From IMG/VR virus record IMGVR_UViG_2731639221_000003, positions 3,072-67,071 of that record: a stretch of 64,000 nucleotides of DNA; one strand, written 5' to 3'. The position numbers were made by a program, and so were the translations under genes. This DNA is from a virus. Position 1 is the stretch's first letter. Each line of letters begins with the position of its first letter. The notes under the pieces were generated by a model, which saw only the letters and a program-made list of their open reading frames with translations, was not told the DNA's origin and did not search any database. Positions 10,292 to 53,571 of the stretch are shown piece after piece.

Positions 10292-10362
10292 TATATTTGT
10301 TTATAACTTAAAGAGGCATAAAGCCCTGAACATTGCTATAAGGCAGCGTTTAGGGCTATTTG
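10292..10362 (+). promoter_or_regulatory. TATATTTG -7 box, AGAGGCA and AGCCC/GGGCT hairpin (late-leader element 1)
   Basis: TATATTTG 10292-10299, AGAGGCA 10312-10318, stem AGCCCTGAAC/GTTTAGGGCT. Confidence 0.75.
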
Positions 10363-10380
10363 CGTTAATACCTTAATACA

Positions 10381-10947
10381 ATGAAATACAAGATACCTAA
10401 GACCGCACAGGAGCGACAAAACGAAATTGAGAAACTTTCTAATTTAGAGCGTTTTTGTTTAGACGCTTATATTGTAAGTAAGTTCCCAGCTTCCCAAAAG
10501 GTTGTTATTGCTTACGAGCAGAGCAGACCGAGAGAAGCACAAGCCAACCGCCAAAGTGTCTATACACAAGCTAGGAATTGGATTAATACGGACAAATGCA
10601 AATACTATATAGAGGATAGGAAAAAAGAACTATTTGCAACCGATCAGCACAGATACAGTACTACCCAAAACGAAGGGAACGAAACAGAAGCGGACACGGA
10701 AAACAACCCCACAGAATCAAACCGCACGAAGGGGGAAACAATTTCAGAATTAAATAAACTTGCAGACAACACAAATGATGTAAAATTGAAGGCTGAAATA
10801 TTGCTAAAGATTAGCGATCTGGAGGGGTGGAAGAAGGAGAAGGAACAGACGGACGATAATACAATACGCTATTATTTACCGCTTAGATGTAACGTTTGCT
10901 CACTATATAAGGCAGCAAAGGAGCAGAAGGCAAAACAGCAAACATAA
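10381..10947 (+). CDS. Probable terminase small subunit
   Basis: TerS-like helical N-terminus (AY..SR...A..W...YIEDR), acidic linker, C-terminal YYLPLRCNVC; preceded by a late-leader element. Confidence 0.5.
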   Translation: MKYKIPKTAQERQNEIEKLSNLERFCLDAYIVSKFPASQKVVIAYEQSRPREAQANRQSVYTQARNWINTDKCKYYIEDRKKELFATDQHRYSTTQNEGNETEADTENNPTESNRTKGETISELNKLADNTNDVKLKAEILLKISDLEGWKKEKEQTDDNTIRYYLPLRCNVCSLYKAAKEQKAKQQT

Positions 10948-11412
10948 CTAATTGACACAGTGGTTAAGTATGCTTATACATATAAGCGAACCCAACGAAA
11001 GAGCCTAAAGGACAGGGAGCAGACCAACCCGAAGCGAGCAAAAAGGGTACACCCCACCCCCTAGAAAAATGAGCAGAAAACCCAATTCATTGCAGATAAA
11101 TTTTTTGGGTATTTTTTTGGTAGTATTGGGGGGGATTTTTACCTGTTTGTTTTTTGTGATCGGAGTGTTAAAAACATAGATAAATTATGATAGTGCGGAT
11201 AGTCAATAAAATAACGATAATTGTGATTTCGGTTGTTTACATCGCTTCATTACTTGTTTTATGGTTATCCGAGCGAATCTATTGAAATATTCTCTTTATA
11301 AGATATATATAGTATGAAGTATTAATTTGTTGATATACAGAAATGTAATCAATTATAATATGCACGAATCGAGCATATATTGTCTACAAAACGTGCATAC
11401 AATTATTAGGGT

Positions 11413-11883
11413 ATGAGTATTAGAGAGTTTAATGAGGATAACCCATTTATTGAGAAGCTACAAGACATAAAGACTGGAACTAGGACTGCTATTTGTTCCA
11501 GAGGGAATATTGTTTCGATGGTGGACGATGATACTGGAGAGGTAAAAGGTCGGGGCTTTAATGCGGTAATCAGAGAGAAGCAATACGATTCGGAACGATT
11601 TGTAAAGATGTATGCGGCAGGACGAAAGGTATTGCCTAATTTAAGTGTAGCGGCAACCCGAATACTCTGGTATATAGTAGACCACATGGGATATGATGAT
11701 ATGATAACGCTAAATATCACTAAGATAAAAAAGGAAACAGGCTACAAAAGTAATGCTGCTATTTATAGGGCTATTTCGGAACTAAAGAATCATTGCGTCT
11801 TAGCTAATGCGTACCAAAATGGAATATATTATATCAATCCTGCCATGTTTTATCGTGGTAATAGGTTGAAACTTCTAATCTAG
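11413..11883 (+). CDS. RepL-like winged-helix replication/maintenance protein
   Basis: FVKMY...ATRILWYI...IYRAISEL...YYINPAMFYRGNR matches RepL-type wHTH proteins. Confidence 0.65.
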   Translation: MSIREFNEDNPFIEKLQDIKTGTRTAICSRGNIVSMVDDDTGEVKGRGFNAVIREKQYDSERFVKMYAAGRKVLPNLSVAATRILWYIVDHMGYDDMITLNITKIKKETGYKSNAAIYRAISELKNHCVLANAYQNGIYYINPAMFYRGNRLKLLI

Positions 11884-12034
11884 TTTTGATAAATAATTTA
11901 TTTACTGGACAATGAATTATTTAACATATTTGTAGTAGTTTTGTCGAATGTGATGTTTGTGTATTTATAATGTTGTAACCCAATATTATATAATACAGGT
12001 TGATAGTTGTTACCATTGAATTAAAAATAATATT

Positions 12035-12889
12035 ATGAAAATTAGACTAAGTAAAGATTTTAAGGTTGAATTAAGTACATTAGTTCGATTTGAATGGAGA
12101 AAATACTATCCTGTATTAATAATACACGAAAGATTCGAGAAGATTATAAAATACACTATTTGGGCAATAATTATTATTACAATTCTAAGTTCATTATTAG
12201 TATTTCAGAATTGTATTTGTAGTTTAATTTTAGCTATAACATTATTTTTATTGCAAAAGTTATTTGAGAAAACAATATTTGAATATACAACTGTTGTTTT
12301 TGCCCCACTTCCTGACTTTGCAATTGATAATACGCAGTGGCTTACTAATGCTTTTCTAATACCAACTAATGAGGATGACACTTATGACAAATCACTTCCC
12401 GCAACGTTCTCTATTTGCTTCCGAGACGAAAATTACGCAAAAAAAGTATTTGAATTATTTAAACAATGGAATTATGAAGAAGATAATGATACTGAAAATA
12501 ATATTATAATATCTTTCGTAGTAGAGCCTAATGAAAAGTATTCAACATATATATATCAAAACCCTAGAAGAAAAAATCCTGATAAATATTTTGAAAAAGT
12601 AAAAGAAAAAAACAAATTGGAGAAATATGGAAAGCAACAACAAAGATTCTTAGTAGGGTTTATTTTAGGTAAGAAATTAGATTTTAAAAATGGGATGCTT
12701 ATAAAATTGTTTCTTGATTTTCAAGAGCAAAATAAACTATTCAATTTTATGCCTTCTACGGAAATTACAGTAGATGGAAAAAAAGGAGTGAAATTTTTAA
12801 ATACCTCAACAATAAACAAATATGGCTTTGAACTAAAAAAGAGAAACGAATTAACAAAAAAAGATTTTGAATATCATTATCCAATATAA
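12035..12889 (+). CDS. Low-GC membrane protein (moron) with two N-terminal TM helices
   Basis: Hydrophobic segments TIWAIIIITILSSLLVF and ICSLILAITLFLL; very AT-rich. Confidence 0.7.
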   Translation: MKIRLSKDFKVELSTLVRFEWRKYYPVLIIHERFEKIIKYTIWAIIIITILSSLLVFQNCICSLILAITLFLLQKLFEKTIFEYTTVVFAPLPDFAIDNTQWLTNAFLIPTNEDDTYDKSLPATFSICFRDENYAKKVFELFKQWNYEEDNDTENNIIISFVVEPNEKYSTYIYQNPRRKNPDKYFEKVKEKNKLEKYGKQQQRFLVGFILGKKLDFKNGMLIKLFLDFQEQNKLFNFMPSTEITVDGKKGVKFLNTSTINKYGFELKKRNELTKKDFEYHYPI

Positions 12890-13050
12890 ATAAAACAAGG
12901 GGAACATTTCTGTTCCCCTCTGGCACAACATCATAGTTGATTACGGATGCCTATGAATGTTGCCCTGTTGAAAGGTACTGATTAATCAGTGCCTTTTTGT
13001 CGTCTCACGACGATAATTGAGTAATCAATTTTGTTCTCAGGTTAGCGAGA
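12890..13050. ncRNA. Candidate small structured RNA or convergent terminator cluster (five hairpins)
   Basis: Stems at 12898-12919, 12922-12963, 12971-12996, 13000-13013 and 13016-13029; TACATTTG -7-like box on the minus strand at 13063-13056. Confidence 0.35.
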
Positions 13051-13120
13051 TATTACAAATGTATTGTCCTTTACCTTATTTTTCTAATTTAGCAAGAGAG
13101 AGTTTTCGTAATTCCGAAAA

Positions 13121-13369: not shown

Positions 13370-13378
13370 GTGTCGTAA

Positions 13379-15779: not shown

Positions 15780-16601
15780 TTAAATTATATCTGTATTGTA
15801 AACGGGTATCAAAATACAGCAACATCTTACATGGTAGCCTGAGAAAAATTCGTCTTTGGAATGAAATACGCCTACATTGTCGTCACATATTGTACAGGGG
15901 TAAGCACTTCCCCGAATGGTGTACCAACCGATAATTTCGGGTTTTGTGAGCCAGATACTATTGAGTGTATTATTATAAGCGTGAAAAATAGTCTGCTGCT
16001 CCAGACGGACAAGGTTGTCGAAGGATGAAATGTATATTCCCGAACCGAATGTTATTCCTTTGCTTAAAATGCGTTCTGCTTTAAAGCCCTGTTTTCTAAA
16101 TGCGTCTAAGAGTAAGGGGGATTTATAGGGTGATTTGAACCAAGTAAGGTAATCGCTGAGAACCTGTGTCCGGCTCATGCCTTTTGCCAATCCTGCTGCG
16201 ATATAGGCTTCGATTTCATAACTCATATTTGAGACGTATCGGTTTATCCTTTCTTGAAGGGTCTGCCCTGCTATGACAGAGCCTAGAAACAAAAGCAGAA
16301 ACTTGTCTGATTTTTCTTCCGCTTCCTTTTCGTGTGCAAGTGTGTCTGCATATTTGCATCTTGTATAAATGATATTGAATATCTCTTTTCTGATTTCGTC
16401 ATTTATAGATGAAACTTTTTCGTCCAGTTCTGAATTTGCCGAGAATTGAAAAGATTTACCCAAATAAGCATATACAAAGGCTTGGTCTATGAGCTTTCTT
16501 GTGTATCGCTGAATAATGGCTTTCAGGTCGGCATCGGAAAGAGCCATCTGGTCGATAACTCTTTCCATATACTTGATTGCTTCGGCTTGTCCCTTCCTCA
16601 T
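15780..16601 (-). CDS. Minor head / head morphogenesis protein (SPP1 gp7 / Mu gpF-like)
   Basis: C-terminal C..C...HVRCCC motif; directly downstream of the portal. Confidence 0.7.
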   Translation of the reverse strand: MRKGQAEAIKYMERVIDQMALSDADLKAIIQRYTRKLIDQAFVYAYLGKSFQFSANSELDEKVSSINDEIRKEIFNIIYTRCKYADTLAHEKEAEEKSDKFLLLFLGSVIAGQTLQERINRYVSNMSYEIEAYIAAGLAKGMSRTQVLSDYLTWFKSPYKSPLLLDAFRKQGFKAERILSKGITFGSGIYISSFDNLVRLEQQTIFHAYNNTLNSIWLTKPEIIGWYTIRGSAYPCTICDDNVGVFHSKDEFFSGYHVRCCCILIPVYNTDII

Positions 16602-18139
16602 TCTGCTGCTATCTTACGTTGGGTATTCGTTTTATTCATACCGTCATAAGGTTGCTGCATAGCGAGTGCTTCCCTTTCGTCTTTTTGTTCCTGCTCCTTC
16701 TGCTTTTTGAGGCGGTTCTGCTCGTCTGCTGCTGAGTAGACCGATACTTCGGATGCGGTTTCTTTTGAAGTAAAGCCCGATGTTACACCCATAACTAAGT
16801 TATTGGTAATCTCGTTATCGTTTTGGTGAACGTAGATGGATATATCGCCTCTGAGGTCTAGTTTTTTGAAATCGGAAACGGAATTGCCTTCTTCCATTGC
16901 ATAGCCTTCTTTGAAAAGGGATATGATAGTATCGAACGACTTATTGTAAAAGTTTTTATCGTTTAATCCCTGTTCTATGGCTGGTGAATACATAATCTTT
17001 ATAGTCACGCCGGGTAAATCTCCTGCGGGTGTTTCGGGGGGTAGTACGGTAAAGCTCCCCATCAGTATATATTTGAGGGTTTCTTTGAGTTGGAGTTCGA
17101 AGGAACTACTGGCATCTGCTCTCTCCATAAATTTTGCATCCCCTTCCTCATTATTGAATAACAATGCTCTGGCTTGTCCCGCCAAAGTGCCTTGAACCTC
17201 AACATCGCCTTTAATTATCATTATACGAAAGGCATAGGCTTTGTTATTTTCGAATAGCTGTGACAGGGCAAGTTCGAGTTTGTCGATCAAATCCTGAACG
17301 GCAGACCAACATGCACCATCTTCATTTTTAAGGTAAACGATTGGCATAGTTGTGAAGCCATGCGGTACGGGTGCATCTACGACGAACCAACCTTCTGTAT
17401 CTGGAGTGTCTGATAAAGTCGGGAGGAAAGTCTTAGTGTCCCATACAATTGATTTTCCTGCTTTGGAATCCGTTGAATAAGAAAGCAATGTGCAATATTT
17501 TCCGTCCCAGACTTCCATATAAGGTACGTCCTCATTTCGCTCGAAGTCGTAGGCGGTGAAGCTGCGACCAAACAGACGGAGCTTGCCTTTGGCATCGAAT
17601 ACAGGGTGTAATCCGTCGCCTTTGAGAAATGAGAAAACACGATACGCAAACTGCTTGTTTTCCATGTAGGCACAGAATGCGGCATCGCCACAGGCTTTGA
17701 CCGACTGGCAAAAATCGAACTTGGCGGTTTCCATATTCCGTTTATCCCAGCCTTGCTTGAACTTCATAAAGGTTTCGGCTTCGGAATCTGAGGGGTTGAG
17801 ATTGTGATGTATGAATTTGATTTTGTCGCCGCAAAGGTGTGTGAGGTGTTTTTCGAGTATGACTTTCTGTAAGGGTACTGCGACTCTCTCGATGGGGACT
17901 TCTACTAGGCGTTTTTTACCTGTGGGTTCGCCGTTCCCATCTAGGATAGGCATTTCTTTTTTTATATCTTCGTAGTATGTAGGGTCGTTGATCTTATGTC
18001 CGTCAGGGTCTAGTTCTGCTAGGAACTCTGCCTGATAGACTTCCCTTCGGAATAGTTTTTTCGATTGAAAGCCACGATTGGGAAGGTTGCGGTAGAATCG
18101 TTCCCGTTGGTTATAGATTTGGTCTGAGGTTATTGGCAT
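16598..18139 (-). CDS. Portal protein (SPP1 gp6-like)
   Basis: 513 aa, helical, between terL and the gpF-like gene; C-terminal SKETA...E..RL pattern. Confidence 0.8.
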   Translation of the reverse strand: MPITSDQIYNQRERFYRNLPNRGFQSKKLFRREVYQAEFLAELDPDGHKINDPTYYEDIKKEMPILDGNGEPTGKKRLVEVPIERVAVPLQKVILEKHLTHLCGDKIKFIHHNLNPSDSEAETFMKFKQGWDKRNMETAKFDFCQSVKACGDAAFCAYMENKQFAYRVFSFLKGDGLHPVFDAKGKLRLFGRSFTAYDFERNEDVPYMEVWDGKYCTLLSYSTDSKAGKSIVWDTKTFLPTLSDTPDTEGWFVVDAPVPHGFTTMPIVYLKNEDGACWSAVQDLIDKLELALSQLFENNKAYAFRIMIIKGDVEVQGTLAGQARALLFNNEEGDAKFMERADASSSFELQLKETLKYILMGSFTVLPPETPAGDLPGVTIKIMYSPAIEQGLNDKNFYNKSFDTIISLFKEGYAMEEGNSVSDFKKLDLRGDISIYVHQNDNEITNNLVMGVTSGFTSKETASEVSVYSAADEQNRLKKQKEQEQKDEREALAMQQPYDGMNKTNTQRKIAAE

Positions 18140-18165: not shown

Positions 18166-19014
18166 TTAGTCAAATTTTATTTTGTGTTGTTGAATGTTCC
18201 GTGCTTTAAATTCGTCCATACTCAATTTTGAACACCACCATTCAAATATCAAATCGACATCTCTATTAAGTTTTGTAGCATAATATGGGTTTGATTCTAC
18301 AAGATTGGCGATGGCTCGTTTATAGGCTTTTTCTACTTTCGGAAACATTTTTCTATCTCTTGCTATTCCTTTTTTATTAGACATGGGACACATAATGCAA
18401 CCGATTCTGGTATATCCCATATCATAAAGTTCACAGTGCGGCAAGCCTCTAAATTTGAGGAAATCCCATACATCTTTATCACTCCATTCAAGAATTGGAG
18501 AAAGCATGATTTTGTCTTTCCCTTTGATACATGAAACCTCAGTTTCCTTATGAATTACAAACTGGTCGAATGATCCTGAGTATTTATAACCCGATAGTTC
18601 CAGTTCATTTCTTTTAGACCTTCTTACACTCTCGGCTTTTCTAATGCCGAGTATAGTTACCGTACCCGCACCTGATTGCTCTTTGAGTAAATCACAGCAC
18701 CATCGGATTATTCGTGTTGGTAAGCATTTCTTTTTAGGTATGAGTTTATAAATACTTTCTTTGGGTCGGTGGAGTATAACGTCAGGGTAATATTTGCGAA
18801 CAAACTTTATTACCTGCGGCGGGTCAACCGAAGTAAGATTCATGTGTGCCTGAAATTTTACTCCTGCCATTTTTGCTAGTTCATAAATTACTTGCGAGTC
18901 TTTACCTCCAGAGAATGCCAAATAAAAACCATCTTCCGAATCATACTTTAATGCTAATTTTTCAGCTTTCTTTATCAGACTGATTGAATATTCAATCTTG
19001 TGTTTTAAGTTCAT
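18166..19014 (-). CDS. Phosphoadenosine-phosphosulfate (PAPS) reductase-family protein
   Basis: PP-loop AFSGGKDS, RWCC..LKE, GIRKAES.RRS, RIGCIMCP. Confidence 0.88.
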   Translation of the reverse strand: MNLKHKIEYSISLIKKAEKLALKYDSEDGFYLAFSGGKDSQVIYELAKMAGVKFQAHMNLTSVDPPQVIKFVRKYYPDVILHRPKESIYKLIPKKKCLPTRIIRWCCDLLKEQSGAGTVTILGIRKAESVRRSKRNELELSGYKYSGSFDQFVIHKETEVSCIKGKDKIMLSPILEWSDKDVWDFLKFRGLPHCELYDMGYTRIGCIMCPMSNKKGIARDRKMFPKVEKAYKRAIANLVESNPYYATKLNRDVDLIFEWWCSKLSMDEFKARNIQQHKIKFD

Positions 19015-19037: not shown

Positions 19038-20636
19038 TTATAGCATCCATACATTTTTTCTTATAGCTTTGGGATTCTTTACCTCGAAATATTCACGCAT
19101 GAAAAAGGATTCCATAAAGTCGGGCGAGCGTCCGATCACTTTCTTCATTTCGACTTTTGAGATTAGCCGCCAATTCTTATCGGGGTCGGTATCGTCCTGT
19201 GCTACGGCTTTGCGTTCTTTCAGCAGAATGTTTTCGAGTGAAACATTTTTGTAGTTCTTGCCTGAGAATTTTTGTTTCAGGAGTGAGGCTTCTATACTGT
19301 AACCCCGTGCTTTCATGCGTTGGACGAACTTGTAGGCACATTCTGCTTTGAGGTTTTCGAACATCGCCCTGTCGCCATTGGTAGGCATTTCTTTATTATT
19401 GAACGGTCTTGCTCTCGGCATAAAGCCTTTAAATACTTGTCCCAGACCGTTGACATCGTAACAGAAGTTTTCTTCCAAAACACCATGCAGTTTGCAAAAA
19501 TCTTTTGCATAGGCTACGGTCTTTTTTGCATCAACCGAAATAACCCGAACATCACGGGCATGGTAGCCTTCCCAATACCACATCACACACTTGTCGCCAC
19601 CCTCGAAAGCCACATCACAGGTGACGCAGCGTAAACCTTCGTTGTGGTAGGAGTTTGCGAAGAAGTTCTCCATGTCCTCGAACGTTATCAATCCGAATCC
19701 TGCTGTTTTAAACTTCCAGTTCCCGCCTAAATCTCTTGATACTTGCTCGTCTGACTGATTGGCAAGGTTTCCCAAGTAATTGGGATCGGACTTCATTAGT
19801 TTAATATTTTCTTCGAGTTTACCTTCGATGAAGGTGACGGACTTGATAAACATATCTTCTTTGTTGCCAAACTGCTCGTATTCTTTTCGCCAGAGCTTGT
19901 CGATGCGTTCTTTTGCTTGCTCGTAGACTTCCTGTTTGGAATCACCCCAATAAATCTCGTTTACGGTGTCCCCATACATAAAGCAGTAGCGAAGTACTCC
20001 ATTACGTTCGGGTATTGGGATTCCGTCTTCTGCAATCCACCAATCAATGAAAGTGGCTACCCATGAGTCGGGGTCGGGATTACACGTACCTCTGAATCTA
20101 TTCTTAATATTGTGGGCGTTACGATTTGAGGTCAGCAGATATTTAAAGTATTCATAAGGCATGTGGGTAATCTCATCCACACCGACAAAGGACAGTTCAA
20201 GACCCTGAAAGCGTTTTTTGAAATCTTCGAAGGTGTCGGAATAGTAGTCGAATTTGAGTTTACCACCTGAATGGAAATTCCAAGTCATGTCCTGCTGGCT
20301 CTTATTATAAATGCCATATTGGGAATAGATACCGTCTGACTTATCGACGATACCGCCTGTTTTCCTTGAATCATCCTTTTCCTTGCGGAGCAGTGAAGCG
20401 TAGAAATTCGCATTGCGGATGTCGGGCAGGGCTTCCAATAACAGTGAATAAGTTTTTGAGCCTCCCCTTTTGCCCCCAAAGATGCAGATGTCGGCTTCGC
20501 ACATTAAGAATAGTTCCTGACTGCCTTTCTGAGCGATGATATTCAGGGGTGAATCAAGTTCCCGAAGCTGGTTGATATAGTCTAAAGTGTAGACAGGTTC
20601 GGGAAATATGTAGTCCAGTTGTGTTATATTTTCCAT
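19038..20636 (-). CDS. terL: Terminase large subunit
   Basis: Walker A GGKRGGSKT, Walker B VGVDEITH, TCNPD coupling motif, nuclease TCDVA...D and SPDFMES. Confidence 0.92.
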   Translation of the reverse strand: MENITQLDYIFPEPVYTLDYINQLRELDSPLNIIAQKGSQELFLMCEADICIFGGKRGGSKTYSLLLEALPDIRNANFYASLLRKEKDDSRKTGGIVDKSDGIYSQYGIYNKSQQDMTWNFHSGGKLKFDYYSDTFEDFKKRFQGLELSFVGVDEITHMPYEYFKYLLTSNRNAHNIKNRFRGTCNPDPDSWVATFIDWWIAEDGIPIPERNGVLRYCFMYGDTVNEIYWGDSKQEVYEQAKERIDKLWRKEYEQFGNKEDMFIKSVTFIEGKLEENIKLMKSDPNYLGNLANQSDEQVSRDLGGNWKFKTAGFGLITFEDMENFFANSYHNEGLRCVTCDVAFEGGDKCVMWYWEGYHARDVRVISVDAKKTVAYAKDFCKLHGVLEENFCYDVNGLGQVFKGFMPRARPFNNKEMPTNGDRAMFENLKAECAYKFVQRMKARGYSIEASLLKQKFSGKNYKNVSLENILLKERKAVAQDDTDPDKNWRLISKVEMKKVIGRSPDFMESFFMREYFEVKNPKAIRKNVWML

Positions 20637-20645
20637 CTAAGTATT

Positions 20646-20728
20646 AAAAATAAAAGCCCGATACTCCCCCCTAAAGAGAATATCGGGCTTACTGCCTCTA
20701 TATTTGTATATTTATACATACAAATATA
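20646..20728 (-). promoter_or_regulatory. Late-leader element 2 (TATATTTG...AGAGGCA, AGCCC/GGGCT hairpin, U-tract) for the terL operon
   Basis: Minus strand TAGAGGCAGTAAGCCCGATATTCTC...GAGTATCGGGCTTTTATTTTT; palindrome TATATTTGTAT/ATACAAATATA at 20699-20728. Confidence 0.8.
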
Positions 20729-20826
20729 GCTATTTATGTATATATATCCAATAATATATCCTAAATCGTCCTATATTTGCATATTAATACAATTGTTTGT
20801 ATATTTGTAATCACAATTAACCTTAG

Positions 20827-21045
20827 ATGGACGGAAACGAAATATACACACAAACACAAACTGACAATTTCATTAATTCCTATGAGACAACAGACGGAAA
20901 ACGATTCGAATGTCATTGTGGTGTACTTCTTTTTAAAGTGGTCGGCAATAAATTACAGTTTAAGTGCAGATACTCAAAATGCAAAAAGATACACGAAATC
21001 GACATACTTGAATTAGTGCATAAAATCAGGTCAGGAGAGGTTTAA
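20827..21045 (+). CDS. Mu Com-like zinc-ribbon regulator
   Basis: FECHCGVLLFK...LQFKCRYSKCKKIHEI (four-Cys ribbon), 72 aa. Confidence 0.6.
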   Translation: MDGNEIYTQTQTDNFINSYETTDGKRFECHCGVLLFKVVGNKLQFKCRYSKCKKIHEIDILELVHKIRSGEV

Positions 21046-21156
21046 TACATATTGAGCATTTGCGGGTATATCGTTTGCTGTTCTCCACCAGCAAGGTTTT
21101 TCGATATTTCCCGCACGACATAAGGAAGTCTACTTCCGCAAACATATACTATAATG

Positions 21157-21211
21157 AGAGGCATAAAGCCCGATATACAGTTAACAAATAACTGTGCATC
21201 GGGCTTTTTTT
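21157..21211 (+). promoter_or_regulatory. Late-leader element 3 upstream of the scaffold/capsid operon
   Basis: AGAGGCATAAAGCCCGATATACAG...CTGTGCATCGGGCTTTTTTT. Confidence 0.8.
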
Positions 21212-21238
21212 ATTAACACAAACTATTACAAAACACAC

Positions 21239-22551: not shown

Positions 22552-23712
22552 ATGACACCTAGAGACACAAACTATTACGACCTTATACGACATGGATTCG
22601 CTAACGAATCCTATCAGGAATTTGTAGATACCTATTTGGCAAGCCTGTATAACGGACGCAAGACCGACGGTTTCGAGTGGGATGCCGACATACAGATCGA
22701 CTTCACGTACCACCAGATTCAGGCAGAATTAGGACTGAACACGATGCCTACTTATGTAGATATTGATTCACCGAGTGTATATAAACACCATGAAGGTTTC
22801 GAGCTTTCAAGCGGTACAATACCCCGTGCCAAACACGGTTATGCACTGAATGAGAAAATCCTTCGTGAAGAAATGATTTTCGCCCAGAGGACAGGGAAGT
22901 TTTCAACCAACCTCAGTCAAAAAATGAGGGATTTGGTTTTCGACCACACATCGAAACTGATAGGCGGTAACTACAACGGTTTGACATACCAGCGAGATCA
23001 GATGGTATCGACAGGCTCGTTCGTACTGGATGCGAGCAACAACCCTGCGGGTATCAAGAACATTACATTTTCGGCTAAGATTCCGACAACCAACCATGTG
23101 ACGCTGACAGGCACTAAACGCTGGTTCACGGACGACAGTAATGTCGAAGGAACGGCAAGCGACCCGATCAAAGATTTGAAGAAACAAACCTACGATCTGA
23201 AACGCAAAGGGGTTTCAGCTATGCACTTCGAGGTGGATTACCTGACATTCCGCAGGACGATGGAACATTCCAAAATAAGGACTGCCATTGCACTGAATAT
23301 TCATCCGATGGCTGATGCCGCAAATATTGCAGCTTTGGGTGCGGTTCTGGACGAATCGGTTGTGAAATCGAAACTGGAAGGTATAATCGGTTGCCCGATT
23401 AAGGTAATCGACAATATTGTAGCGGTTGAGAAATTCGACAAAGCGGAAGGCAAAGTCATTAAAGAACAAATACGCTCATTCAAATCGGATGTATGGGTAT
23501 TAGTTCCAGACGGACAACTCGGCTCGATCAAAGCGGTAGAGCCTATCGCCATGCCCGACCCTGCGGCTCGATTGGCTTGGTACGACGGTGGACGCACTAT
23601 TTTAAAACAATGGTACGATACCAGAACCAACACCCAATATATCGAATCGGAATTGACGGCATTGGTCGTACCTAACAAACCTCAGTACATGTTGTATTTG
23701 ACTATCGCCTGA
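22552..23712 (+). CDS. Major capsid protein
   Basis: 386 aa, HK97-fold-like size and position; C-terminal ALVVPNKPQYMLYLTI. Confidence 0.75.
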   Translation: MTPRDTNYYDLIRHGFANESYQEFVDTYLASLYNGRKTDGFEWDADIQIDFTYHQIQAELGLNTMPTYVDIDSPSVYKHHEGFELSSGTIPRAKHGYALNEKILREEMIFAQRTGKFSTNLSQKMRDLVFDHTSKLIGGNYNGLTYQRDQMVSTGSFVLDASNNPAGIKNITFSAKIPTTNHVTLTGTKRWFTDDSNVEGTASDPIKDLKKQTYDLKRKGVSAMHFEVDYLTFRRTMEHSKIRTAIALNIHPMADAANIAALGAVLDESVVKSKLEGIIGCPIKVIDNIVAVEKFDKAEGKVIKEQIRSFKSDVWVLVPDGQLGSIKAVEPIAMPDPAARLAWYDGGRTILKQWYDTRTNTQYIESELTALVVPNKPQYMLYLTIA

Positions 23713-37020: not shown

Positions 37021-37022
37021 AA

Positions 37023-37976: not shown

Positions 37977-38075
37977 AATGCTCTGATTGTTATGTGTTTT
38001 TTATACGAGTAATACGCACGAAATATATTAATATTTGTTTAAATAACAAAGTGTTTCTCAATTTATTTTAATAAT

Positions 38076-38555
38076 TTATCTGCGAAATCTTGGGTTAAAC
38101 GGAATGTATAATTTGTAGGCTATATTTATACCGTCTTGGGAGGCAGGAATCCATTGCTGAACTTTCGAGAATGATGCCAGAACCAATTTGACATAGCCAT
38201 CGCATTTATTGATATTCTTAGATTTTTTCCTCCTTTCTTCTTTTCCATAACAAACAACATTCCCTTTGGAATCTATAATTGCATATATTGTCAAAGGTCT
38301 TACATAAATAGAATCGCCGTTTTCGTCAACTAGGCTTAGGGGAATTTTCAAATCCCTTATTACTATGTCAGTGATAGCCTGATTATCGGGCAATCGGGGC
38401 GGTGTATCAGATTGCAGGAACACAGGTTCATTTAATAATGAATCTTTGCAACAAGAACATTTTACATTATCGTTGTTTTCGGAATAGTTGTTCTGTGCGA
38501 AACCGACATAATATGACAGGTTTATTATAAATAGAAGCAATATAAGTTTTTTCAT
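38076..38555 (-). CDS. Exported TonB C-terminal-like protein; possible immunity or accessory factor
   Basis: Signal peptide; AIIDSKGNV...WIPASQDG...YIP pattern of TonB-C domains. Confidence 0.5.
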   Translation of the reverse strand: MKKLILLLFIINLSYYVGFAQNNYSENNDNVKCSCCKDSLLNEPVFLQSDTPPRLPDNQAITDIVIRDLKIPLSLVDENGDSIYVRPLTIYAIIDSKGNVVCYGKEERRKKSKNINKCDGYVKLVLASFSKVQQWIPASQDGINIAYKLYIPFNPRFRR

Positions 38556-38564
38556 TTGGTTTAT

Positions 38565-40157: not shown

Positions 40158-40294
40158 AGTGTGTTTTATTAATTGTGTTAGAAGAAATTGTTTGTGAAGT
40201 ATATAAAAACACTCCACAAACAAATATATAAAGATATGGTTGTGAATTAAACTTTTTTTTAAATTATTCTATCTAAATAGAATAATTTAAAAAT

Positions 40295-41956
40295 CTATTC
40301 AGGATATAACAGAGCTTTTATATTAAATTCATTCATTCCCGCCTGATGTAATTTTCGCTCAATATTCCATTTGATGTCAGTAAGATTAAATGTATTTCCT
40401 TTGCTATCTATTATAAATGCAATGGCTTCTTCGGAATATTGAAGGTGACATAACATCAATATTATAAGATCGGTGTCGGTTAACGCTCCCGAAAGTTTTT
40501 TACCGAGATAGAGGTCACTTGAAAGATAGTCTTTAGCCACGATCAATAATTGTTCGTTGGTTTGCTTTTTCAATGCGTCAACCATTGCCTTGATTTCGAT
40601 ATAGATTTCTATGTCTATTTCTTCCCTTCCTGTCAATAATATTTGGTTGACTTTGGTTTCTATGTCAGACCACCCGATGATGAAGTGTTCATACACATTT
40701 TCAAGGTAGCTTTTACTTGCTATGCTGTGTTCGAATAATCGGTCTTGCGTTAAGGAATGTACTTTTTCTTCCAGTTTTTTTAGTTTTTTGTATTTCCTTT
40801 TACGGCAAAACATAATTGCCAACAGCATCAAGATAAAAACTGTGACTTGCAGTAATACAAAGAATTTTCTTTCTGCTTTATGTTCTTGTTCCTGAATCTG
40901 CAACTGATATTTGTTTTCAGCGTTGAACAGTTTTTCGGTACTTCTTTCCTCCAATATCTTTTGGTTAGCTTCCATTTGTAATCCTTTATAATAAAGGGCT
41001 TGGCTGACATCGCCTATTTGTGAGTTATAATCGGATAATGAACCGTAAATACTTTCAAGTAAATAGTTATCTTTAATTGCAGAGACTTGGTTTTTAATTA
41101 AGTCTGTATAATATTTAGCTGAATCGGGTTTGCTTTTTTCGTTATACAATAAGGAGAGGTTCAGATATATTTTGAGCGAATCTTTGGTATTAGCTGTTTG
41201 CTCTAAAGCCTTACTCAGATAAACGGTTGATTTATCATACTGCTTCATCCTCATAGTGATATATCCTAAGTTATAGGCTTGTATGGCTTTATGCTCGGCA
41301 TTGTCCGTTTCATTTGCCAAATCCAATGATTTGTTGAAAAAGTAATATGCACTGTCTAACTTGTTCGCCAGATCATACGAACGCCCTAACGCTGACATAA
41401 CCTGTAATCGCCTTATACCTGTTTCGGATTCGTTGTTATATAGATTCAGTGCATCGTGTAAATGTACAATGGAGCTATCGGTAATGCCTTGTTCCAAGTA
41501 TATATTTCCTAAGAAATGAAGGCTTTTGGCTGCCAGCATCGTATTTTTGGCTTTACGGGAATACGCTGTTGCGAGCAAAAATGAGTTAAGAGCTTTTTCG
41601 GGTACGTGTTGTGAACGATATACTGTCCCCGCATAAAAGTTAGCAACTGCGGCTTTGTCAAAATTACTTATGTCATTGTAATATTTCTGAGCTTCAAATA
41701 CAAGAGTGTCGCCAGTTATATCTTCATCGTTATTGTATCTTGCTTGTACACGGGTTACTACATATTGCATGTAGTTGCCTTTTCCCATTTTTTCGGGGCT
41801 TTTAATTGAATCGAGCAGAATAATGGCATTTGATGGATTGTTTGCTGCCTCATTTTGAGCCTGTTTTAGCAAGTCCACTGAACGGTTATCTGTACATGAA
41901 AACAAAAAAAGTAGTACGATTGGGAATAAGGTGCTTTTTTGTAATGATATTGTCAT
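40295..41956 (-). CDS. Membrane-spanning TPR sensor/regulator (exported TPRs, TM helix, degenerate LuxR-like HTH)
   Basis: LLFLFSC signal, TPR repeats, TM FFVLLQVTVFILMLLAIMFC, C-terminal LTDTDLIILML...EEAIAFII...IERKL. Confidence 0.7.
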   Translation of the reverse strand: MTISLQKSTLFPIVLLFLFSCTDNRSVDLLKQAQNEAANNPSNAIILLDSIKSPEKMGKGNYMQYVVTRVQARYNNDEDITGDTLVFEAQKYYNDISNFDKAAVANFYAGTVYRSQHVPEKALNSFLLATAYSRKAKNTMLAAKSLHFLGNIYLEQGITDSSIVHLHDALNLYNNESETGIRRLQVMSALGRSYDLANKLDSAYYFFNKSLDLANETDNAEHKAIQAYNLGYITMRMKQYDKSTVYLSKALEQTANTKDSLKIYLNLSLLYNEKSKPDSAKYYTDLIKNQVSAIKDNYLLESIYGSLSDYNSQIGDVSQALYYKGLQMEANQKILEERSTEKLFNAENKYQLQIQEQEHKAERKFFVLLQVTVFILMLLAIMFCRKRKYKKLKKLEEKVHSLTQDRLFEHSIASKSYLENVYEHFIIGWSDIETKVNQILLTGREEIDIEIYIEIKAMVDALKKQTNEQLLIVAKDYLSSDLYLGKKLSGALTDTDLIILMLCHLQYSEEAIAFIIDSKGNTFNLTDIKWNIERKLHQAGMNEFNIKALLYPE

Positions 41957-42061
41957 AGAAGTGAGAATTTGGTTCTAATGCTCAGGAATCCCTAAACCCG
42001 TTATTAAACAGGCTTAGAAATTGGTGTTGGTATATCTCCTTAGAGACTGTTACTATTCAGA

Positions 42062-42376
42062 TTATTTGATACTGTCGCTATCCTGATCGGTAGCTATACT
42101 TTCTTTGGGTGTATCAACAAATTGACTTTTGGGGTCGCCACTTCCTCCCGTATTTCCCAGACCGGCAGAAAACACTTGTGGTTGCGGGTTAGAAATTAGT
42201 GTGTCGCTACTGTTTTTAACTACTTGATTTGCGTTTTTCAATGACTCTATTTTGGGATCACCGCTACCGCCTGTATTGCCCAGACCCATATCTTCTATTT
42301 CGGCATTGGAACAGGAAGAAAAAACAAATACAATGGAACATAGTAAACTGAAAAAGGTAAAGCATTTAATTTTCAT
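42062..42376 (-). CDS. Small lipoprotein with two identical GLGNTGGSGDPK peptides
   Basis: Lipobox-like VFSSC; repeats at 42251-42286 and 42128-42163 differ at 7 synonymous and 0 non-synonymous sites. Confidence 0.75.
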   Translation of the reverse strand: MKIKCFTFFSLLCSIVFVFSSCSNAEIEDMGLGNTGGSGDPKIESLKNANQVVKNSSDTLISNPQPQVFSAGLGNTGGSGDPKSQFVDTPKESIATDQDSDSIK

Positions 42377-42976: not shown

Positions 42977-43040
42977 TATATTTGTGTAAACGATACAGAG
43001 GCACATAGCCCGAATTGGAGAAATCCTTTTCGGGCTTTTT
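42977..43040 (+). promoter_or_regulatory. Late-leader element 4 upstream of the distal tail operon
   Basis: TATATTTG-N12-AGAGGCA-CAT-AGCCCGAA...TTCGGGCTTTTT. Confidence 0.8.
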
Positions 43041-43057
43041 GCATTTACACACAAACG

Positions 43058-43513
43058 ATGGCACAAAACTATAAACCTTGTCTGTTTCAGAAAATAGCGG
43101 GTAATACACCTGTAAGGGACAGTATGGAATGGGGTATTTATATAAAAAGTGTCCCCTTTAAAGTATTCCCCGACATCAAAGAACCGCCTTCCCGTGACTG
43201 GATGGATGAACACGGGGACGATGAATATTTATCTAATACCCCCTACTACAAAGCATACGAGATTGATTGTCAGTTTGTCTTTATCGGGACGAACGGAACA
43301 GCCAATACCAAAATCAAAGCCTTTCTGAGCTATCTGGCAGAGGGTGGCAAATTCAGGATGTACGACACTTATACAAAAATAGGGCGTACCGATGTACGCT
43401 ATGTCAGCTACTCGGAAGATGTGTTTTACCGCCGTGAAGGGCAGGACGATGTAGTTATGTTCTCTGTGAAGTTGAAAGTAAACGACCCTATTACGGACAT
43501 AAGCCTCCCCTAA
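43058..43513 (+). CDS. Distal tail protein (Dit-like)
   Basis: 151 aa; DWMDEHGDDEY...LKVNDP; position upstream of the hub gene. Confidence 0.65.
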   Translation: MAQNYKPCLFQKIAGNTPVRDSMEWGIYIKSVPFKVFPDIKEPPSRDWMDEHGDDEYLSNTPYYKAYEIDCQFVFIGTNGTANTKIKAFLSYLAEGGKFRMYDTYTKIGRTDVRYVSYSEDVFYRREGQDDVVMFSVKLKVNDPITDISLP

Positions 43514-50600: not shown

Positions 50601-51019
50601 CTATACAGAAATACGAAGGGGTGGATATGATCGGCTATGGTGAAGGGAATAACTTTTACGGATGGATAATTTTGAATAGGTTCAATACGAACTCCTATAA
50701 TCAGTCTGGGTTCGGACTGAAACTGTATAATATCGGTATGGTAAGAAGCGGTACGATAATCAAACAGACGACTCCTGACCCGATTTCGAGTATTACCCGT
50801 GTGTCGGAAGGTAGGTATAAGTTGACTTTCCAGACCCCATTCTCCAGTGCAAATAATTATATAGTTTTCTTAACGTGTGAAACAACTTCATATATGGGGC
50901 GTTTTGCGAATGTGACCGCCAAGACGACGACTTATTTTGAGGTGTACACAGGTGACGACTCGACACCGAACGACGGGGATTTCAATTTTATGGTGGTTTC
51001 TACATTGAACTGGACATAA
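47690..51019 (+). CDS. Tail fibre / receptor-binding protein with carbohydrate-binding modules
   Basis: 1109 aa; F5/8-type-C-like VVVDLGAVSEISKVKVWHY...S.DG..W; CBM4/9-like GGRNLLLNSNF...LQYEEGTKSSAWSPAPED. Confidence 0.8.
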   Translation: MALIAQGQFTIKRAAKDGQYTVNQYAKSTSDAVAPASGWASSPPTLVAGEYLWMRTGLVIPPATTPTSWTLPVRISGDKGNQGDAGTLNYIEWKDSWTVGNSAIAGWGNNGTTDENIREMGKNPFGLQSMLWKCIPNLDGNAAGGWVTNPILLDTKYAYRYSVFVKKVKSGTTYHGCYEVVNLNGTANTNPYFWSGTTLRTNEWFLMVGIIHPYAVTTNSGIGGVYDMAGRLFSSGTDYKFNASNQAVRFRSYLFYSSDATDLQYFFNPMVHRLDGTEPSINDLLQVQTASVVDTSFKVLDDKIITKANQTDFTALQGRVTSAESTIVQQGTKIESTVTKVDGKNAVYKSLTSGTTDRPVIPYAKNDLWITYTGEIKQSTVTRLTGSFTDSDWIATTKYTDDTAATNAQNTAVKKIRYIRDWLNGSTANTGNHWVQIMALNTAGTNVALNKTVSGDSTNTRITNGSTDSASYVSVAEGLRYVVVDLGAVSEISKVKVWHYNLDSRTYYKTKTEASADGINWFPLFDSAIEGTYKESTAGRTYYVRDYDNNAVSGLRNRTYYSDATPAVPEVGHKEGDLWYKISLTNGCYTTYRWNGSAWAVINEYVSKAQQTITDTSITNLVTKTGINSLGTGETLISKINQTADNITLEVGKVQIGGRNLLLNSNFVVSPDFTSWGTNGGTRTIEADATFGKVTKIVATGGSQGIYQNPATRRTSGKNYVISGYMKAAANMNVSFSHEGGTGSKAFAVTTAWQRFETQGTWTSGGSVCFYSGGAGTFYLANLQYEEGTKSSAWSPAPEDIPHIAGSALSISDNKIILASSSIIMKGTAITEAIKAQTAQFGGFTVSGDRFESIAKTDNVPNLFLDGKNGTAFLRGGLLTPFKNGTYRLNSGGGATFSTYGLQDNNNVVITGDTLGWTIAFVVPFTKEYNGFRATIINEKFESKTPVGNISASAPNGMYFFENGVKKTELTIQKYEGVDMIGYGEGNNFYGWIILNRFNTNSYNQSGFGLKLYNIGMVRSGTIIKQTTPDPISSITRVSEGRYKLTFQTPFSSANNYIVFLTCETTSYMGRFANVTAKTTTYFEVYTGDDSTPNDGDFNFMVVSTLNWT

Positions 51020-51060
51020 AAAAAGAGAAGGGCAGACTCGTTAAAGCTGCCCTTATCTCG
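51020..51060 (+). terminator. Terminator-like hairpin after the fibre gene
   Basis: AAGGGCAG/CTGCCCTT inverted repeat. Confidence 0.55.
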
Positions 51061-51477
51061 CTCTCCGTATATGGGTTAACAATAATATAATGTGAGAATA
51101 TAGCCGTAAGGTGTTTTTTTCCTCTTACTTTCTCTAGGGAATGGTTTTAGTGCATTTGGAGCAATAAATAGAGAAAAATCGAGGTTTTAATGCTTAATCT
51201 TTTCATTATTAATTCTGATTGTTAACTTACCGGAGAATCCTCTCCTCCATCACAGTTTATTTAATTTTGTTGGTTTTTTAGAAAGAGTGTCCTCCGTAGT
51301 GTTAGAGAGGACACCCTAACTGGTCTTGTTTACAGCAATTTCTGCTTTAGGTTATCGCTTAGACATTGTAAACTGTAAAAGACCTCTGGTTTAGAGCAAT
51401 TGATTGATAAATAATTGGTTGTGTTCCTGATAAAATATTAGATTTAAAATAAGTGAGAATTGGTTGTTTAACTATAA

Positions 51478-51762
51478 TTAATTTCCGTCCATAAATAGGT
51501 AGGACTCGGTACATATATTATTCTTAAAACGACATGTCAGGGTAGATTCAGATAAAGGTATTTCCAATTCTTTATATTCGTTATCTTTATCTGTCCTAAT
51601 GCACCTGTAATTTTGGTATATGCCAATTACTACATCCAAAGTCAGCCCAATACAATCGGGAACTTTTAAGATTTTTGGCAAAATTAAAACTCTAATTTCT
51701 AGTAGTTTATTTAAAATAACATCTTTTTTTATTGTGCCTTCGGAAAGTTTACCTGTTTCCAT
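51478..51762 (-). CDS. Hypothetical protein, 94 aa, with a long structured leader
   Basis: Own -7 box (52106-52099) and downstream hairpin GTGTCCTC/GAGGACAC near 51287-51314. Confidence 0.55.
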   Translation of the reverse strand: METGKLSEGTIKKDVILNKLLEIRVLILPKILKVPDCIGLTLDVVIGIYQNYRCIRTDKDNEYKELEIPLSESTLTCRFKNNICTESYLFMDGN

Positions 51763-51823
51763 ACAAATAGTAATTAGACCTGTTTATCCTCTATTCTAGG
51801 TTGTTAATAATAATGTTAATAAT

Positions 51824-52106
51824 AAAAAGCGGAGGAACATTAACTATCCTTGCAACATTCGGAAGTCCAATTCCCCACGCAAAAGAATATATCAACGCCC
51901 TCCGCTATTTGCAGAAAGACGTTTATTCTGATTTTGTTACGTGATTAAATCTTTGGACTTTTAAATGTTGCAATCAGAGCTAAACGCTCATTTATATTAA
52001 ATATTTTTACAAATATGAACTGACTCTACAATTCATCTTATGACACAATACTATAATTGAAACGCTACTACACATACCATTTTTTAATATTGCATCCGCA
52101 AATATA
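51824..52106 (-). promoter_or_regulatory. Promoter and leader with interleaved alternative helices
   Basis: 51850-51870 pairs with 51953-51973; 51828-51835 pairs with 51899-51906; TATATTTG on the minus strand at 52106-52099. Confidence 0.55.
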
Positions 52107-52289
52107 TTTTAAGAGTTTGATAATAAATATTATTTTCAAACAATAAATATTATTTGTTATAGAGGTAAATTTATATCTTTATATTTTAATAAAAATATGA
52201 TATGAAATTCGATGTAGTTTGAGCGTATTTTTAGGCTTATGTGACTATTTTTTATTAATTTCGTGGAGAACATTATTTGATAATATATT

Positions 52290-52748
52290 ATGGCAACAGA
52301 TACAGTAGAACAAAAACCTCATCAGGGTGTTAACGTGATGATAAGACGTAAAAGAAAAAATATGTCTCAAGAATCACTCGGTAATCTAATCGGTTTACCA
52401 CAATGTGATATTTCTAAATTAGAAAATCAGGAAGTAATTGAAGAAAAAACATTATCAAAAATTGCTAATGCTTTAGGTTGTTCCTTAGAATCGTTAAGAG
52501 ATTTCGACGTAGACCATGCCATGAACTCCTTTAATTCGACTATAACAGACACTAAGGATAATTCTTTTATCAATAGTGGCTATTCAAACGAAATACATCA
52601 GACATACAACCAAACTTCTCCCGACTTAATAGATTTGTATAAGACCCTTTTACAAGACGAAAAGGATTTGCGGATAAGAGAGGTTCAAACAATGGAAAAG
52701 GAAATTGAATTTTTGAGAGTTCAACTAGCTGAATCTTTGAAAAAGTAA
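52290..52748 (+). CDS. XRE-family HTH regulator with C-terminal coiled coil
   Basis: RRKRKNMSQESLGNLIGLPQCDISKLEN...KIANALG. Confidence 0.85.
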   Translation: MATDTVEQKPHQGVNVMIRRKRKNMSQESLGNLIGLPQCDISKLENQEVIEEKTLSKIANALGCSLESLRDFDVDHAMNSFNSTITDTKDNSFINSGYSNEIHQTYNQTSPDLIDLYKTLLQDEKDLRIREVQTMEKEIEFLRVQLAESLKK

Positions 52749-52865
52749 CAACTATTTTCCCGAATGAACAGCTCAATGGTTATAAACGCTAAAGTTAAAA
52801 AATCAGATAAACTATTGGAATGGCATACTTCTTCCTAAATTTGTAAAGCTAAAATATATAAGATT

Positions 52866-53165
52866 ATGTGTACGATAAGCATAAACGAATTTAATTGCAA
52901 TCCGCAAAAGTATTTTCAAATAGCGGAAACCGAACAAGTAATGATTAAGGACAATGGCAAAGTCTATCAGCTTGTTATGACAATAGATGAAAAAGATTTT
53001 ATTTCCGGCGAAGAATTAAAGGAGCGTGTTCATGCAAGAATAGAACAAATGTACAAGAGCAAAAAGCAGGTAATAACCGAAGAAGATTTGAAAAACTCAT
53101 ATTCGCCAGAGGAGTTCAAAACGGTTATGAAAAAGGAAATTCATAAAATGTTTAGCCAGCAATAG
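52866..53165 (+). CDS. Putative antitoxin with Phd/YefM-like N-terminus
   Basis: TISINEFNCNPQKYFQIAETEQVMIK. Confidence 0.6.
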   Translation: MCTISINEFNCNPQKYFQIAETEQVMIKDNGKVYQLVMTIDEKDFISGEELKERVHARIEQMYKSKKQVITEEDLKNSYSPEEFKTVMKKEIHKMFSQQ

Positions 53166-53168
53166 TAG

Positions 53169-53492
53169 ATGGAAGTTCGTTTTTCTCATGCAACAAGTAT
53201 CTTTCTGAGAGAATTGATACAAATTCTTTACGAAGAAGATTATTTCGGTTTTGAAGAGGCAGCGATAGAGTATGTCAATGATCTGGTCGATGATATTCAG
53301 TCGGGTATTGCCCGTAAGCACAAAAAACCTGCTCCTTCTTATTTTGATAAATACGGTCAAAATATGTATTATGTATCTTATAAGCGAAATAAAAATACAA
53401 CTTGGTATATATTTTTCAACTACTCGGAAGATGTTTATTACATCCGTTACATAGGTAACAACCACACTATATCGCACTATTTGTCAGAATAA
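53169..53492 (+). CDS. Putative RelE/ParE-like toxin
   Basis: MEVRFS...AAIEYVNDLVDDI...TTWYIFF...YYIRYIGNNH; 3 bp after the antitoxin. Confidence 0.6.
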   Translation: MEVRFSHATSIFLRELIQILYEEDYFGFEEAAIEYVNDLVDDIQSGIARKHKKPAPSYFDKYGQNMYYVSYKRNKNTTWYIFFNYSEDVYYIRYIGNNHTISHYLSE

Positions 53493-53503
53493 TTAATTTG
53501 TAG

Positions 53504-53571
53504 TATATTTATACTCATTATAAGAGGCATAAAGCCCGAAACGGAAGTAACATTCCTTTTCGGGCTTTTTT
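53504..53571 (+). promoter_or_regulatory. Late-leader element 5 upstream of the lysis cassette
   Basis: TATATTTA-N11-AGAGGCA-TAA-AGCCCGAA...TTCGGGCTTTTTT. Confidence 0.8.

Follow-up and report, generated by a model that had tools for sequence, protein, structure and literature searches.

The RNA target of the phage Mu protein Com is a short hexaloop hairpin that has a closing C-G pair and contains the motif CC(N)2-3GAG; it lies directly 5′ of a translation-inhibition hairpin that is opened by Com (PMC6483171). A related logic is found in the operons controlled by BglG, SacY and LicT via RAT elements, by ANTAR proteins (AmiR, NasR, EutV) and by HutP, where an RNA-binding protein acts locally and non-processively by stabilizing a small antiterminator hairpin that overlaps the 5′ arm of an intrinsic terminator. 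To our knowledge, little has been published on late-gene switching in temperate Bacteroidales phages, and full-text searches of the literature yielded no description of Com-like antitermination or of comparable late-gene elements in these phages. A 2026 preprint on Bacteroidales prophage induction distinguishes early and middle-late gene clusters and mentions neither terminators nor zinc proteins. Here we describe five elements, each composed of the box AGAGGCA and a terminator-like hairpin, in a siphovirus-type Bacteroidales prophage (IMG/VR record IMGVR_UViG_2731639221_000003). The whole analyzed stretch of 64,000 nucleotides (nt), referred to as the window, corresponds to C4:120963–184962 of a 5.12-Mb genome. 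The elements precede the predicted late operons, and a gene for a small Com-like zinc-ribbon protein is located between two of them. Comparison with the described systems makes it rather probable that RAT/BglG-type antitermination is executed here by a Com-type protein. In contrast to the RAT, ANTAR and HutP systems, which control metabolic operons, the timing of phage late genes would be the regulated process, the small hairpin is much shorter and the protein fold is unrelated, with no CAT-PRD, ANTAR or HutP domain found in Pfam scans of about 45 open reading frames (ORFs) of the window and of the zinc-ribbon family.

The window contains five exact matches to AGAGGCA-N3-AGCCC (copies 1–5, Table 1); with up to two mismatches, the pattern matched eight times compared to 2.2 matches expected from shuffled sequences, none of which (0/100) reached eight. 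In the alignment of the five copies, the box and the outer stem AGCCC...GGGCT are invariant, the loops differ and a T-tract is present. The hairpins of all copies have folding energies of –23 to –28 kcal/mol (z = –5.2 to –7.6 against shuffles), and the T-tract adjoins the stem in copies 2–5. The elements thus show the GC-rich stem-loop and the directly adjoining U-tract of intrinsic terminators, with a weak U-tract in copy 1 (tail ATTTGCGTT). These findings agree with an earlier note on this DNA, made from the sequence alone, which had listed five AGAGGCA-led hairpins at the same places and on the same strands, with constant outer stems, variable loops and a weak T-tract in copy 1. The consensus of the Bacteroidetes –7 box is TAnnTTTG, and copies 1, 4 and 5 are preceded by boxes of this type (TATATTTG, TATATTTG and TATATTTA) at distances of 12, 12 and 11 nt; the earlier note had mentioned three cases of a TATATTT(G/A) box at 11–12 nt. 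Copy 2 has such a box as well (TATATTTG, 21 nt upstream), and no adjacent –7 box was found for copy 3. Taken as a whole, the sequence features favor the view that the five elements act as conditional intrinsic terminators and thereby prevent expression of the late operons.

For comparison, loci with related TerL genes were collected, comprising Dysgonomonas sp. 25, a second prophage on contig C20 of the same genome (TerL 85% identical to that of the window), three metagenomic contigs (TerL 70–83% identical) and 80 IMG/VR loci (51–89%). A covariance model across related phages, which the earlier note had suggested as a check, was built from 11 copies (model R1) and recovered the five window copies (57–68 bits) and two copies on C20 (56–61 bits) when run over the whole genome, with the next-best match at 30 bits. 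In the R1-guided alignment, the outer stem of the terminator was 98.9% paired, with double-sided changes in six of the eight pairs. Searching the whole genome with the sequence pattern gave one match beyond the window copies, on contig C18, which has no hairpin, falls within an ORF and was dismissed as chance. When species genomes were scanned with a relaxed version of the DNA pattern, most matches were unrelated (e.g. in Vibrio), and only the one in Dysgonomonas sp. 25 was relevant. Rfam at gathering threshold assigned no family to the window.

The elements head five units, namely packaging (terS-like), TerL-portal, scaffold-capsid-tail, distal tail and lysis. These labels, given already in the earlier note, fit the downstream genes for TerL and portal, capsid, tail and lysin; the first gene after copy 1 is called terS-like on a language-model lead only. 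Likewise in agreement with the earlier description, no copy was found in the early region (291–9442), and none in the accessory island (33244–42376, minus strand). This island lies in antisense orientation, without a box-hairpin, and splits the tail module, which explains the need for a separate copy 4 ahead of the distal tail genes. Because copies 1, 2 and 4 have no co-directional gene upstream, they are not ordinary end-of-gene terminators. An unlikely, though not negligible, explanation is that all elements are factor-independent insulators, which shield the late units from stray or convergent transcription, with box and small hairpin tuning terminator strength and another regulator setting the timing at the promoters. 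Copies 3 and 5 follow co-directional genes (in the case of copy 5 the regulator genes at 52290–53492) and could be their ordinary terminators, the small hairpin described below is weak by itself, and the window encodes helix-turn-helix (HTH) regulators, e.g. at 52290–52748. However, copies 1, 2 and 4 are located 11–21 nt past a consensus –7 box and, as insulators, would abort their own operons. Insulation also leaves unexplained why the elements co-occur with a Com-like gene and why the pairing between box and terminator arm is under selection.

Evidence for such selection came from the complementarity of bases 4–6 of the box (GGC) to bases 4–2 of the terminator 5′ arm (GCC). The small hairpin resulting from this pairing and the base of the terminator are mutually exclusive, which is the overlap with the terminator 5′ arm seen in antiterminators. 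AGAGGCA, previously taken as a linear box read by a protein, is therefore not only a linear signal, since three of its bases pair with the terminator. The 5′ 15 nt alone fold as the small hairpin (–3.5 kcal/mol), and enforcing this pairing leaves a gap of 4 nt between the end of the remaining stem and the U-tract. Pair counts were made on the R1-guided alignment, which was not fitted to the small helix, and showed 96.6% pairing for the three pairs versus at most 57% when the partner columns were slid; 0/500 shuffles reached the observed pairing or covariation score. Six cells with double-sided changes from G-C to A-U were found in addition to wobble variants. In the C20 prophage and in the related locus L106, both copies read AGAGAC ... 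AGUCC and differ at box position 5 (A for G) and at arm position 3 (U for C), while the 3′ arm of the C20 copies has kept its G. A retained G of the 3′ arm was seen in five AGUCC-type cells, where the terminator is left with a U-G wobble; all six changed boxes carry A and thus form a Watson-Crick A-U pair. In a swap test with 45 non-redundant elements from all relatives, the complementarity of cognate boxes and arms was 8.4 compared to 6.4 after swapping (permutation p = 5e-4). The pairs observed between box and arm comprised GGC/GCC, GAC/GUC, GGAC/GUCC, GGGUU/AAUCC, GAGU/GCUC, GCU/AGC, GCC/GGC and AGC/GCU. Compensation occurred separately on the two sides of single loci, with GGC/GCC on one side and GGAC/GUCC on the other in L113, and GG.U/GCC and GGACU/AGUCC in L121. 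We also considered whether the stem variant (GGC or GAC) goes with the clade of the zinc-ribbon protein. It does not, since the proteins of L110 (GGC) and L089 (GAC) are similar, and a structural role of the stem bases is hence more plausible than a code that is read by the protein.

The halves of the small hairpin are separated by 3 to 8 nt or more, and the loops comprise 3 to 25 nt. Together with the wobble pairs, this variable spacing argues for an RNA element rather than a DNA operator. Small zinc-finger activators of late genes are known from P2 (Ogr) and P4 (Delta), and they resemble the candidate protein described here in their small size and, with regard to its proposed role, in switching on several late operons. 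It is nevertheless highly improbable, the least probable of the alternatives considered by us, that box and inverted repeat are an operator or activator site for an Ogr/Delta-type or other DNA-binding protein. The Cx4C second knuckle of the window protein is like that of Ogr, and palindromic half-sites can change together. In contrast, Ogr and Delta bind DNA at about –55 upstream of promoters and contact RNA polymerase, whereas the sites described here are transcribed, being located downstream of the –7 box, are variably spaced and tolerate G-U wobbles, which would be mismatches in DNA. Moreover, Ogr_Delta was not among the Pfam matches listed for 25 members of the zinc-ribbon family (the first 25 of 39 families).

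The earlier note had seen no Q or NusG-like gene in the window. Indeed, Pfam and PHROGs searches with about 60 ORFs detected no Q, N, NusG or sigma-like late regulator, and neither of the Q families PF06530 and PF03589 was detected in the genome. As to NusG paralogues such as UpxY, RfaH and LoaP, the sole match to the NusG N-terminal domain (PF02357) in the 5.12 Mb lies outside the prophage, on contig C7. The window nonetheless offers a candidate factor, because the Com-like zinc-ribbon ORF between the TerL and capsid operons probably encodes the trans-acting factor that opens the late terminators. Two –7 boxes precede the gene, for which a promoter role is assumed from the Bacteroidetes consensus, and no box-hairpin was found between them and the ATG. 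In every relative with elements, an ORF for a zinc-ribbon protein of 53–88 amino acids (aa) was present at the same place. Automatic evaluation of 33 groups of TerL loci yielded 19 groups with both a terminator upstream of TerL and a zinc-ribbon ORF and nine with neither. The other five groups were inspected by eye. Three of them had the ORF without a TerL-side terminator, two with capsid-side elements and one apparently with a mismatched hairpin. The remaining two had a terminator without the ORF, one due to a false AT-rich hairpin and one because the ORF was missed by the filter. Fisher's test for this co-occurrence, with groups not corrected for kinship, gave 2.5e-4. About 63 of the 82 TerL-related loci examined contain the zinc-ribbon gene, nearly all together with at least one element. 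The profile of the zinc-ribbon family (A4) matched only in the two prophages of the window's genome, and in a sample of 400 further Bacteroidales genomes it identified three more Com-like genes independently of TerL. Each of these is followed within ~100 nt by a terminator with GAGCC in its 5′ arm, and a further (A)GAGCC-like copy is located upstream. Downstream of more distant Com-like genes in other Bacteroidales genomes (L208, at ~1650–1780, L209 and L211), the order is an (A)GAGCC-like box, a spacer and a terminator whose 5′ arm starts with (G)AGCC. The C20 prophage (region C20:53948–54636; L094 3100–3788; L089) has its own Com-like gene for a protein of 61 aa that is ~27% identical to that of the window, and its two elements are both of the GAC/GUC variant.

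Alignment of the zinc-ribbon family to Mu Com, another small phage zinc-ribbon protein of ~60 aa, by hhalign gave a probability of 95% (E = 4e-8) over 30 columns, and some homologues have been named 'FluMu protein Com' by JGI. In relatives, the likeness extends to the RNA. The hairpin bound in Mu carries GAG where loop and stem meet and is followed directly by a larger inhibitory hairpin, which opens when Com binds (PMC6483171). The Mu target sequence is AUGC[CUGCGA]GCAU, and capsid-side or internal elements of distant relatives contain AGC[CAAAGA]GCU, GAC[CAAAGA]GUC, GGC[CAAAGA]GCC, GGC[CACAGA]GCC and AGGC[CAUAGA]GCUU. The capsid-side hairpin GC[CNNNGA]GC of these relatives is thus the target motif of Mu Com itself fused to the terminator arm, with the 3′ half (GAGCU etc.) forming the beginning of the terminator 5′ arm. 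In elements of the window type the order is permuted, as the 5′ half of the small stem is headed by (A)GAG and pairs with bases of the terminator arm. Both arrangements coexist in single phages with one zinc-ribbon gene (L161, L182 and L123), so that the common feature is GAG at the small-stem junction, and in either arrangement formation of the small hairpin takes bases from the terminator. The systems differ in that Mu Com frees a start codon at one site before mom, whereas here the inhibitory hairpin has the form of an intrinsic terminator and occurs at five sites per phage, before structural, packaging and lysis operons. Furthermore, the binding hairpin overlaps the inhibitory stem instead of abutting it, and the GAG of the window elements is 5′ of the small stem rather than in the loop. 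Com activates translation of a DNA-modification gene (mom, methyltransferase), which is not what is found downstream here, namely TerL, capsid, tail and lysis genes.

Since the family matches Mu Com, a Mu-like translational activator or an RNA stabilizer has to be considered, in which case the hairpin would hinder ribosome loading or protect the mRNA 5′ end without any change in termination. Translation initiation in Bacteroidetes is thought to depend on unstructured leaders, and the start codons follow the stem closely, at 17–33 nt in the window and at 12–17 nt before TerL in relatives. However, no start codon was found inside a stem, all hairpins have the GC stem and U-tract of intrinsic terminators, some elements follow tRNA genes and hence are not 5′-terminal, and tandem elements in the related locus L109 are more readily explained by control of termination. 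We therefore regard a translational or stabilizing role as improbable.

In relatives, the elements are kept at homologous places down to ~50% TerL identity. All closer relatives retain the divergent TerL/capsid intergenic region with a box-hairpin on both sides; Dysgonomonas sp. 25 has five elements, and whole-contig scans of five distant relatives found 3–4 per contig. Considering window and relatives together, the distance from box to stem is steady at 3–5 nt and that from box to –7 box varies between 10 and 25 nt. The capsid-side box is often located directly 3′ of tRNA genes (12 nt after the tRNA in L109). The steady spacing to the stem, the varying promoter distance and the placement after tRNA genes indicate that the box is an RNA element tied to the hairpin and not part of a promoter. 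The previously proposed promoter-proximal position of the terminators applies to copies 1, 2, 4 and 5, but not to copy 3, which is downstream of the zinc-ribbon gene (in relatives directly after tRNA genes). Such tRNA genes (Ser twice, Cys and Phe) were seen between the Com-like gene and the capsid-side element at L089 3379–3549, L107 9593–9665 and L109 9531–9604; ARAGORN detected no tRNA in the window. The intervening tRNA genes of the relatives would be co-transcribed with the factor, ending at the regulated terminator. At positions 9406–9520 (minus strand) of L109, two tandem terminators precede the capsid operon, and the presence of a separate box at each of them is consistent with a local mechanism. 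With the conserved placement, the linked small gene and the tandem boxes of L109, there is now comparative support for the antitermination by a phage factor reading the AGAGGCA region that had been postulated in the earlier note. For L124, contigs from the RNA libraries X1 and X4 cover the region, and in X1 single contigs bridge both elements (1–2168, 2350–6602); contigs cannot show RNA ends and may result from DNA carry-over, and they were not used as evidence.

The arrangement of constitutive-looking promoters followed by a close terminator, with the antiterminator encoded just upstream of a late operon, resembles lambda Q with pR′-tR′ (6S RNA). The linear box followed by a hairpin also recalls boxA-boxB of lambda nut, one of several leader RNA elements that overcome terminators, together with HK022 put, EAR and Tn916 canT. 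It could accordingly be supposed that a factor or RNA loads once at the box and makes the polymerase resistant to terminators operon-wide, and the promoter-proximal position of four of the five copies, as in pR′-tR′, would suit this. Yet Q binds promoter DNA, loads on sigma-paused polymerase and acts processively from one site, whereas here no Q family and no NusG paralogue were found with the prophage, the distance between box and promoter varies, and every terminator, including the tandem ones, has its own box. Likewise, nut, put, EAR and canT mediate processive modification of RNA polymerase and are not part of a terminator, in contrast to a box that pairs with the very terminator it precedes. 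The canT element is a cis-acting processive RNA (PMC11658703), unlike the present system. Processive antitermination hence appears very unlikely, hardly better placed than an operator in DNA.

Terminator-specific antitermination by the Com-like protein has several observations to contend with. The U-tract of copy 1 is poor, and the small helix of the window elements has just 3 bp (–3.5 kcal/mol), compared to a terminator fold that is 8–11.5 kcal/mol more stable. Therefore the alternative fold needs a stabilizing ligand or a kinetic trap, and the protein would have to bind tightly or act kinetically. Covariation in the close alignment concerns mainly one pair, G-C to A-U, and probably reflects few independent events, as the relatives are not independent samples. 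The window protein, with atypical zinc knuckles (CxC, Cx4C), had no Pfam hit at all, including Zn_ribbon_Com (PF10122), for which two of 25 family members reached E < 0.01. Its AlphaFold model is weak (pLDDT 61), a Foldseek search of PDB with this model gave no match at E ≤ 0.001, and a sequence-profile search of PDB returned generic zinc ribbons only, e.g. eS27. Finally, the likeness to the Com target is confined to relatives, as the five window elements lack a CC(N)2-3GAG hexaloop and instead have the loops AUAAA, AGUAA or ACAUA, with AGAG 5′ of the stem.

The anatomy of the elements, the alternative pairing with its covariation, the linkage to the Com-like gene and the likeness to Com and, in relatives, to its target were computed directly. 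For termination itself, binding of the protein, the direction of its effect and the timing, we infer from them the following scheme. Transcription would start from the adjacent host-type promoters in the case of copies 1, 2, 4 and 5 and from the promoter of the zinc-ribbon gene in the case of copy 3, and by default it would stop at hairpin and U-tract, yielding short leader RNAs; copy 5 would also be reached by transcription of the regulator genes upstream of it. The first 15 nt to be made, AGAG-GGC-loop-GCC, could form the small hairpin using the first bases of the terminator 5′ arm. The Com-like protein, produced from its own terminator-free promoter, would bind the small hairpin and its AGAG flank on the nascent RNA and hold the arm, thereby blocking the bottom of the terminator stem and allowing RNA polymerase to enter the late genes. 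With one binding site per terminator, the action would be local and non-processive. We consider it reasonably likely that the Com-like protein prevents terminator folding by clamping the small hairpin in this way, one terminator at a time. As copy 3 sits between the factor gene and the capsid operon, transcripts from the factor promoter would run into the capsid genes once the protein accumulates. Copy 5 also separates the lysis genes from the regulators and may insulate lysis in the lysogen.

Upstream of copy 5, the region 51019–53492 consists of a gene-poor stretch of ~1.3 kb followed by an HTH_3 regulator (52290–52748) and two small ORFs on the same strand. It may represent an immunity or regulatory module that is insulated from the lysis genes by copy 5. 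The accessory island encodes, besides the proteins listed in Table 1, several ORFs without a family. Early expression of cysH, which resembles the gene between TerL and portal in the late unit headed by copy 2, was described for another Bacteroidales prophage in the 2026 preprint. No match among GenBank phages was obtained by megablast with 24 kb.

Table 1. Positions of the five elements, the Com-like gene and further genes in the window.
Feature	Position	Strand	Remarks
Copy 1, element	10292–10366	+	–7 box TATATTTG 10292–10299; box AGAGGCA 10312–10318
Copy 1, small-hairpin halves	GGC 10315–10317, GCC 10323–10325	+	
Copy 1, terminator hairpin	10322–10357	+	weak T-tract; ATG of terS-like gene at 10381
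Copy 2, element	20644–20728	–	–7 box 20728–20721; box 20699–20693
Copy 2, small-hairpin halves	GGC 20696–20694, GCC 20688–20686	–	
Copy 2, terminator hairpin	20690–20654	–	T-tract; ATG of TerL at 20636
Copy 3, element	21157–21214	+	box 21157–21163; GGC 21160–21162, GCC 21168–21170
Copy 3, terminator hairpin	21165–21207	+	T-tract; likely ATG of scaffold-like gene at 21239
Copy 4, element	42977–43045	+	–7 box 42977–42984; box 42997–43003
Copy 4, terminator hairpin	43007–43036	+	T-tract; ATG of tail gene at 43058
Copy 5, element	53504–53575	+	TATATTTA 53504–53511; box 53523–53529
Copy 5, terminator hairpin	53531–53568	+	T-tract; ATG of lysis block at 53602
Com-like zinc-ribbon gene (candidate factor)	20827–21045	+	72 aa, CxC...Cx4C; between TerL and capsid operons, upstream of copy 3
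Two –7 boxes TATATTTG	20772–20779, 20800–20807	+	ahead of zinc-ribbon gene
Weak terminator-like hairpin	21074–21095	+	between zinc-ribbon gene and copy 3; tRNA genes there in relatives
Integrase	291–1193	–	
Primase-like	4089–4934	–	
Portal	16598–18139	–	
PAPS-reductase-like (CysH-like)	18166–19014	–	between TerL and portal, within late unit headed by copy 2
TerL	19038–20636	–	
Major capsid protein	22552–23712	+	
1728-aa ORF at tape-measure position	26985–32171	+	label by size and position only
Hcp/TssD-like fusion	38565–40223	–	accessory island
TPR protein	40295–41956	–	accessory island
Tail protein	43058–43513	+	
Lysin, glucosaminidase-type	54217–54723	+	in lysis block

Temperate Bacteroidales phages dominate the human gut virome, and the present analysis offers a defined cis element of ~55 nt and a candidate trans factor of 72 aa for the control of their late genes. 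The balance of the evidence tips slightly towards a general view, in which Com-family zinc ribbons would form a widespread class of terminator-specific antiterminators, unpublished so far, and control the timing of late genes in Bacteroidales siphoviruses. Each late operon would carry a GAG-bearing small hairpin fused to an intrinsic terminator, and the translational role of Mu Com would be a special case of binding a small hairpin to open a big one. If true, this would add a new protein family to the antiterminators and tie the long-isolated mechanism of Mu Com to transcription control. A compact, orthogonal, protein-controlled terminator switch for Bacteroides genetics may possibly be derived from the system, and, again if true, its sequence signature would make it possible to annotate late operons, together with their regulator, in many genomes of gut phages.

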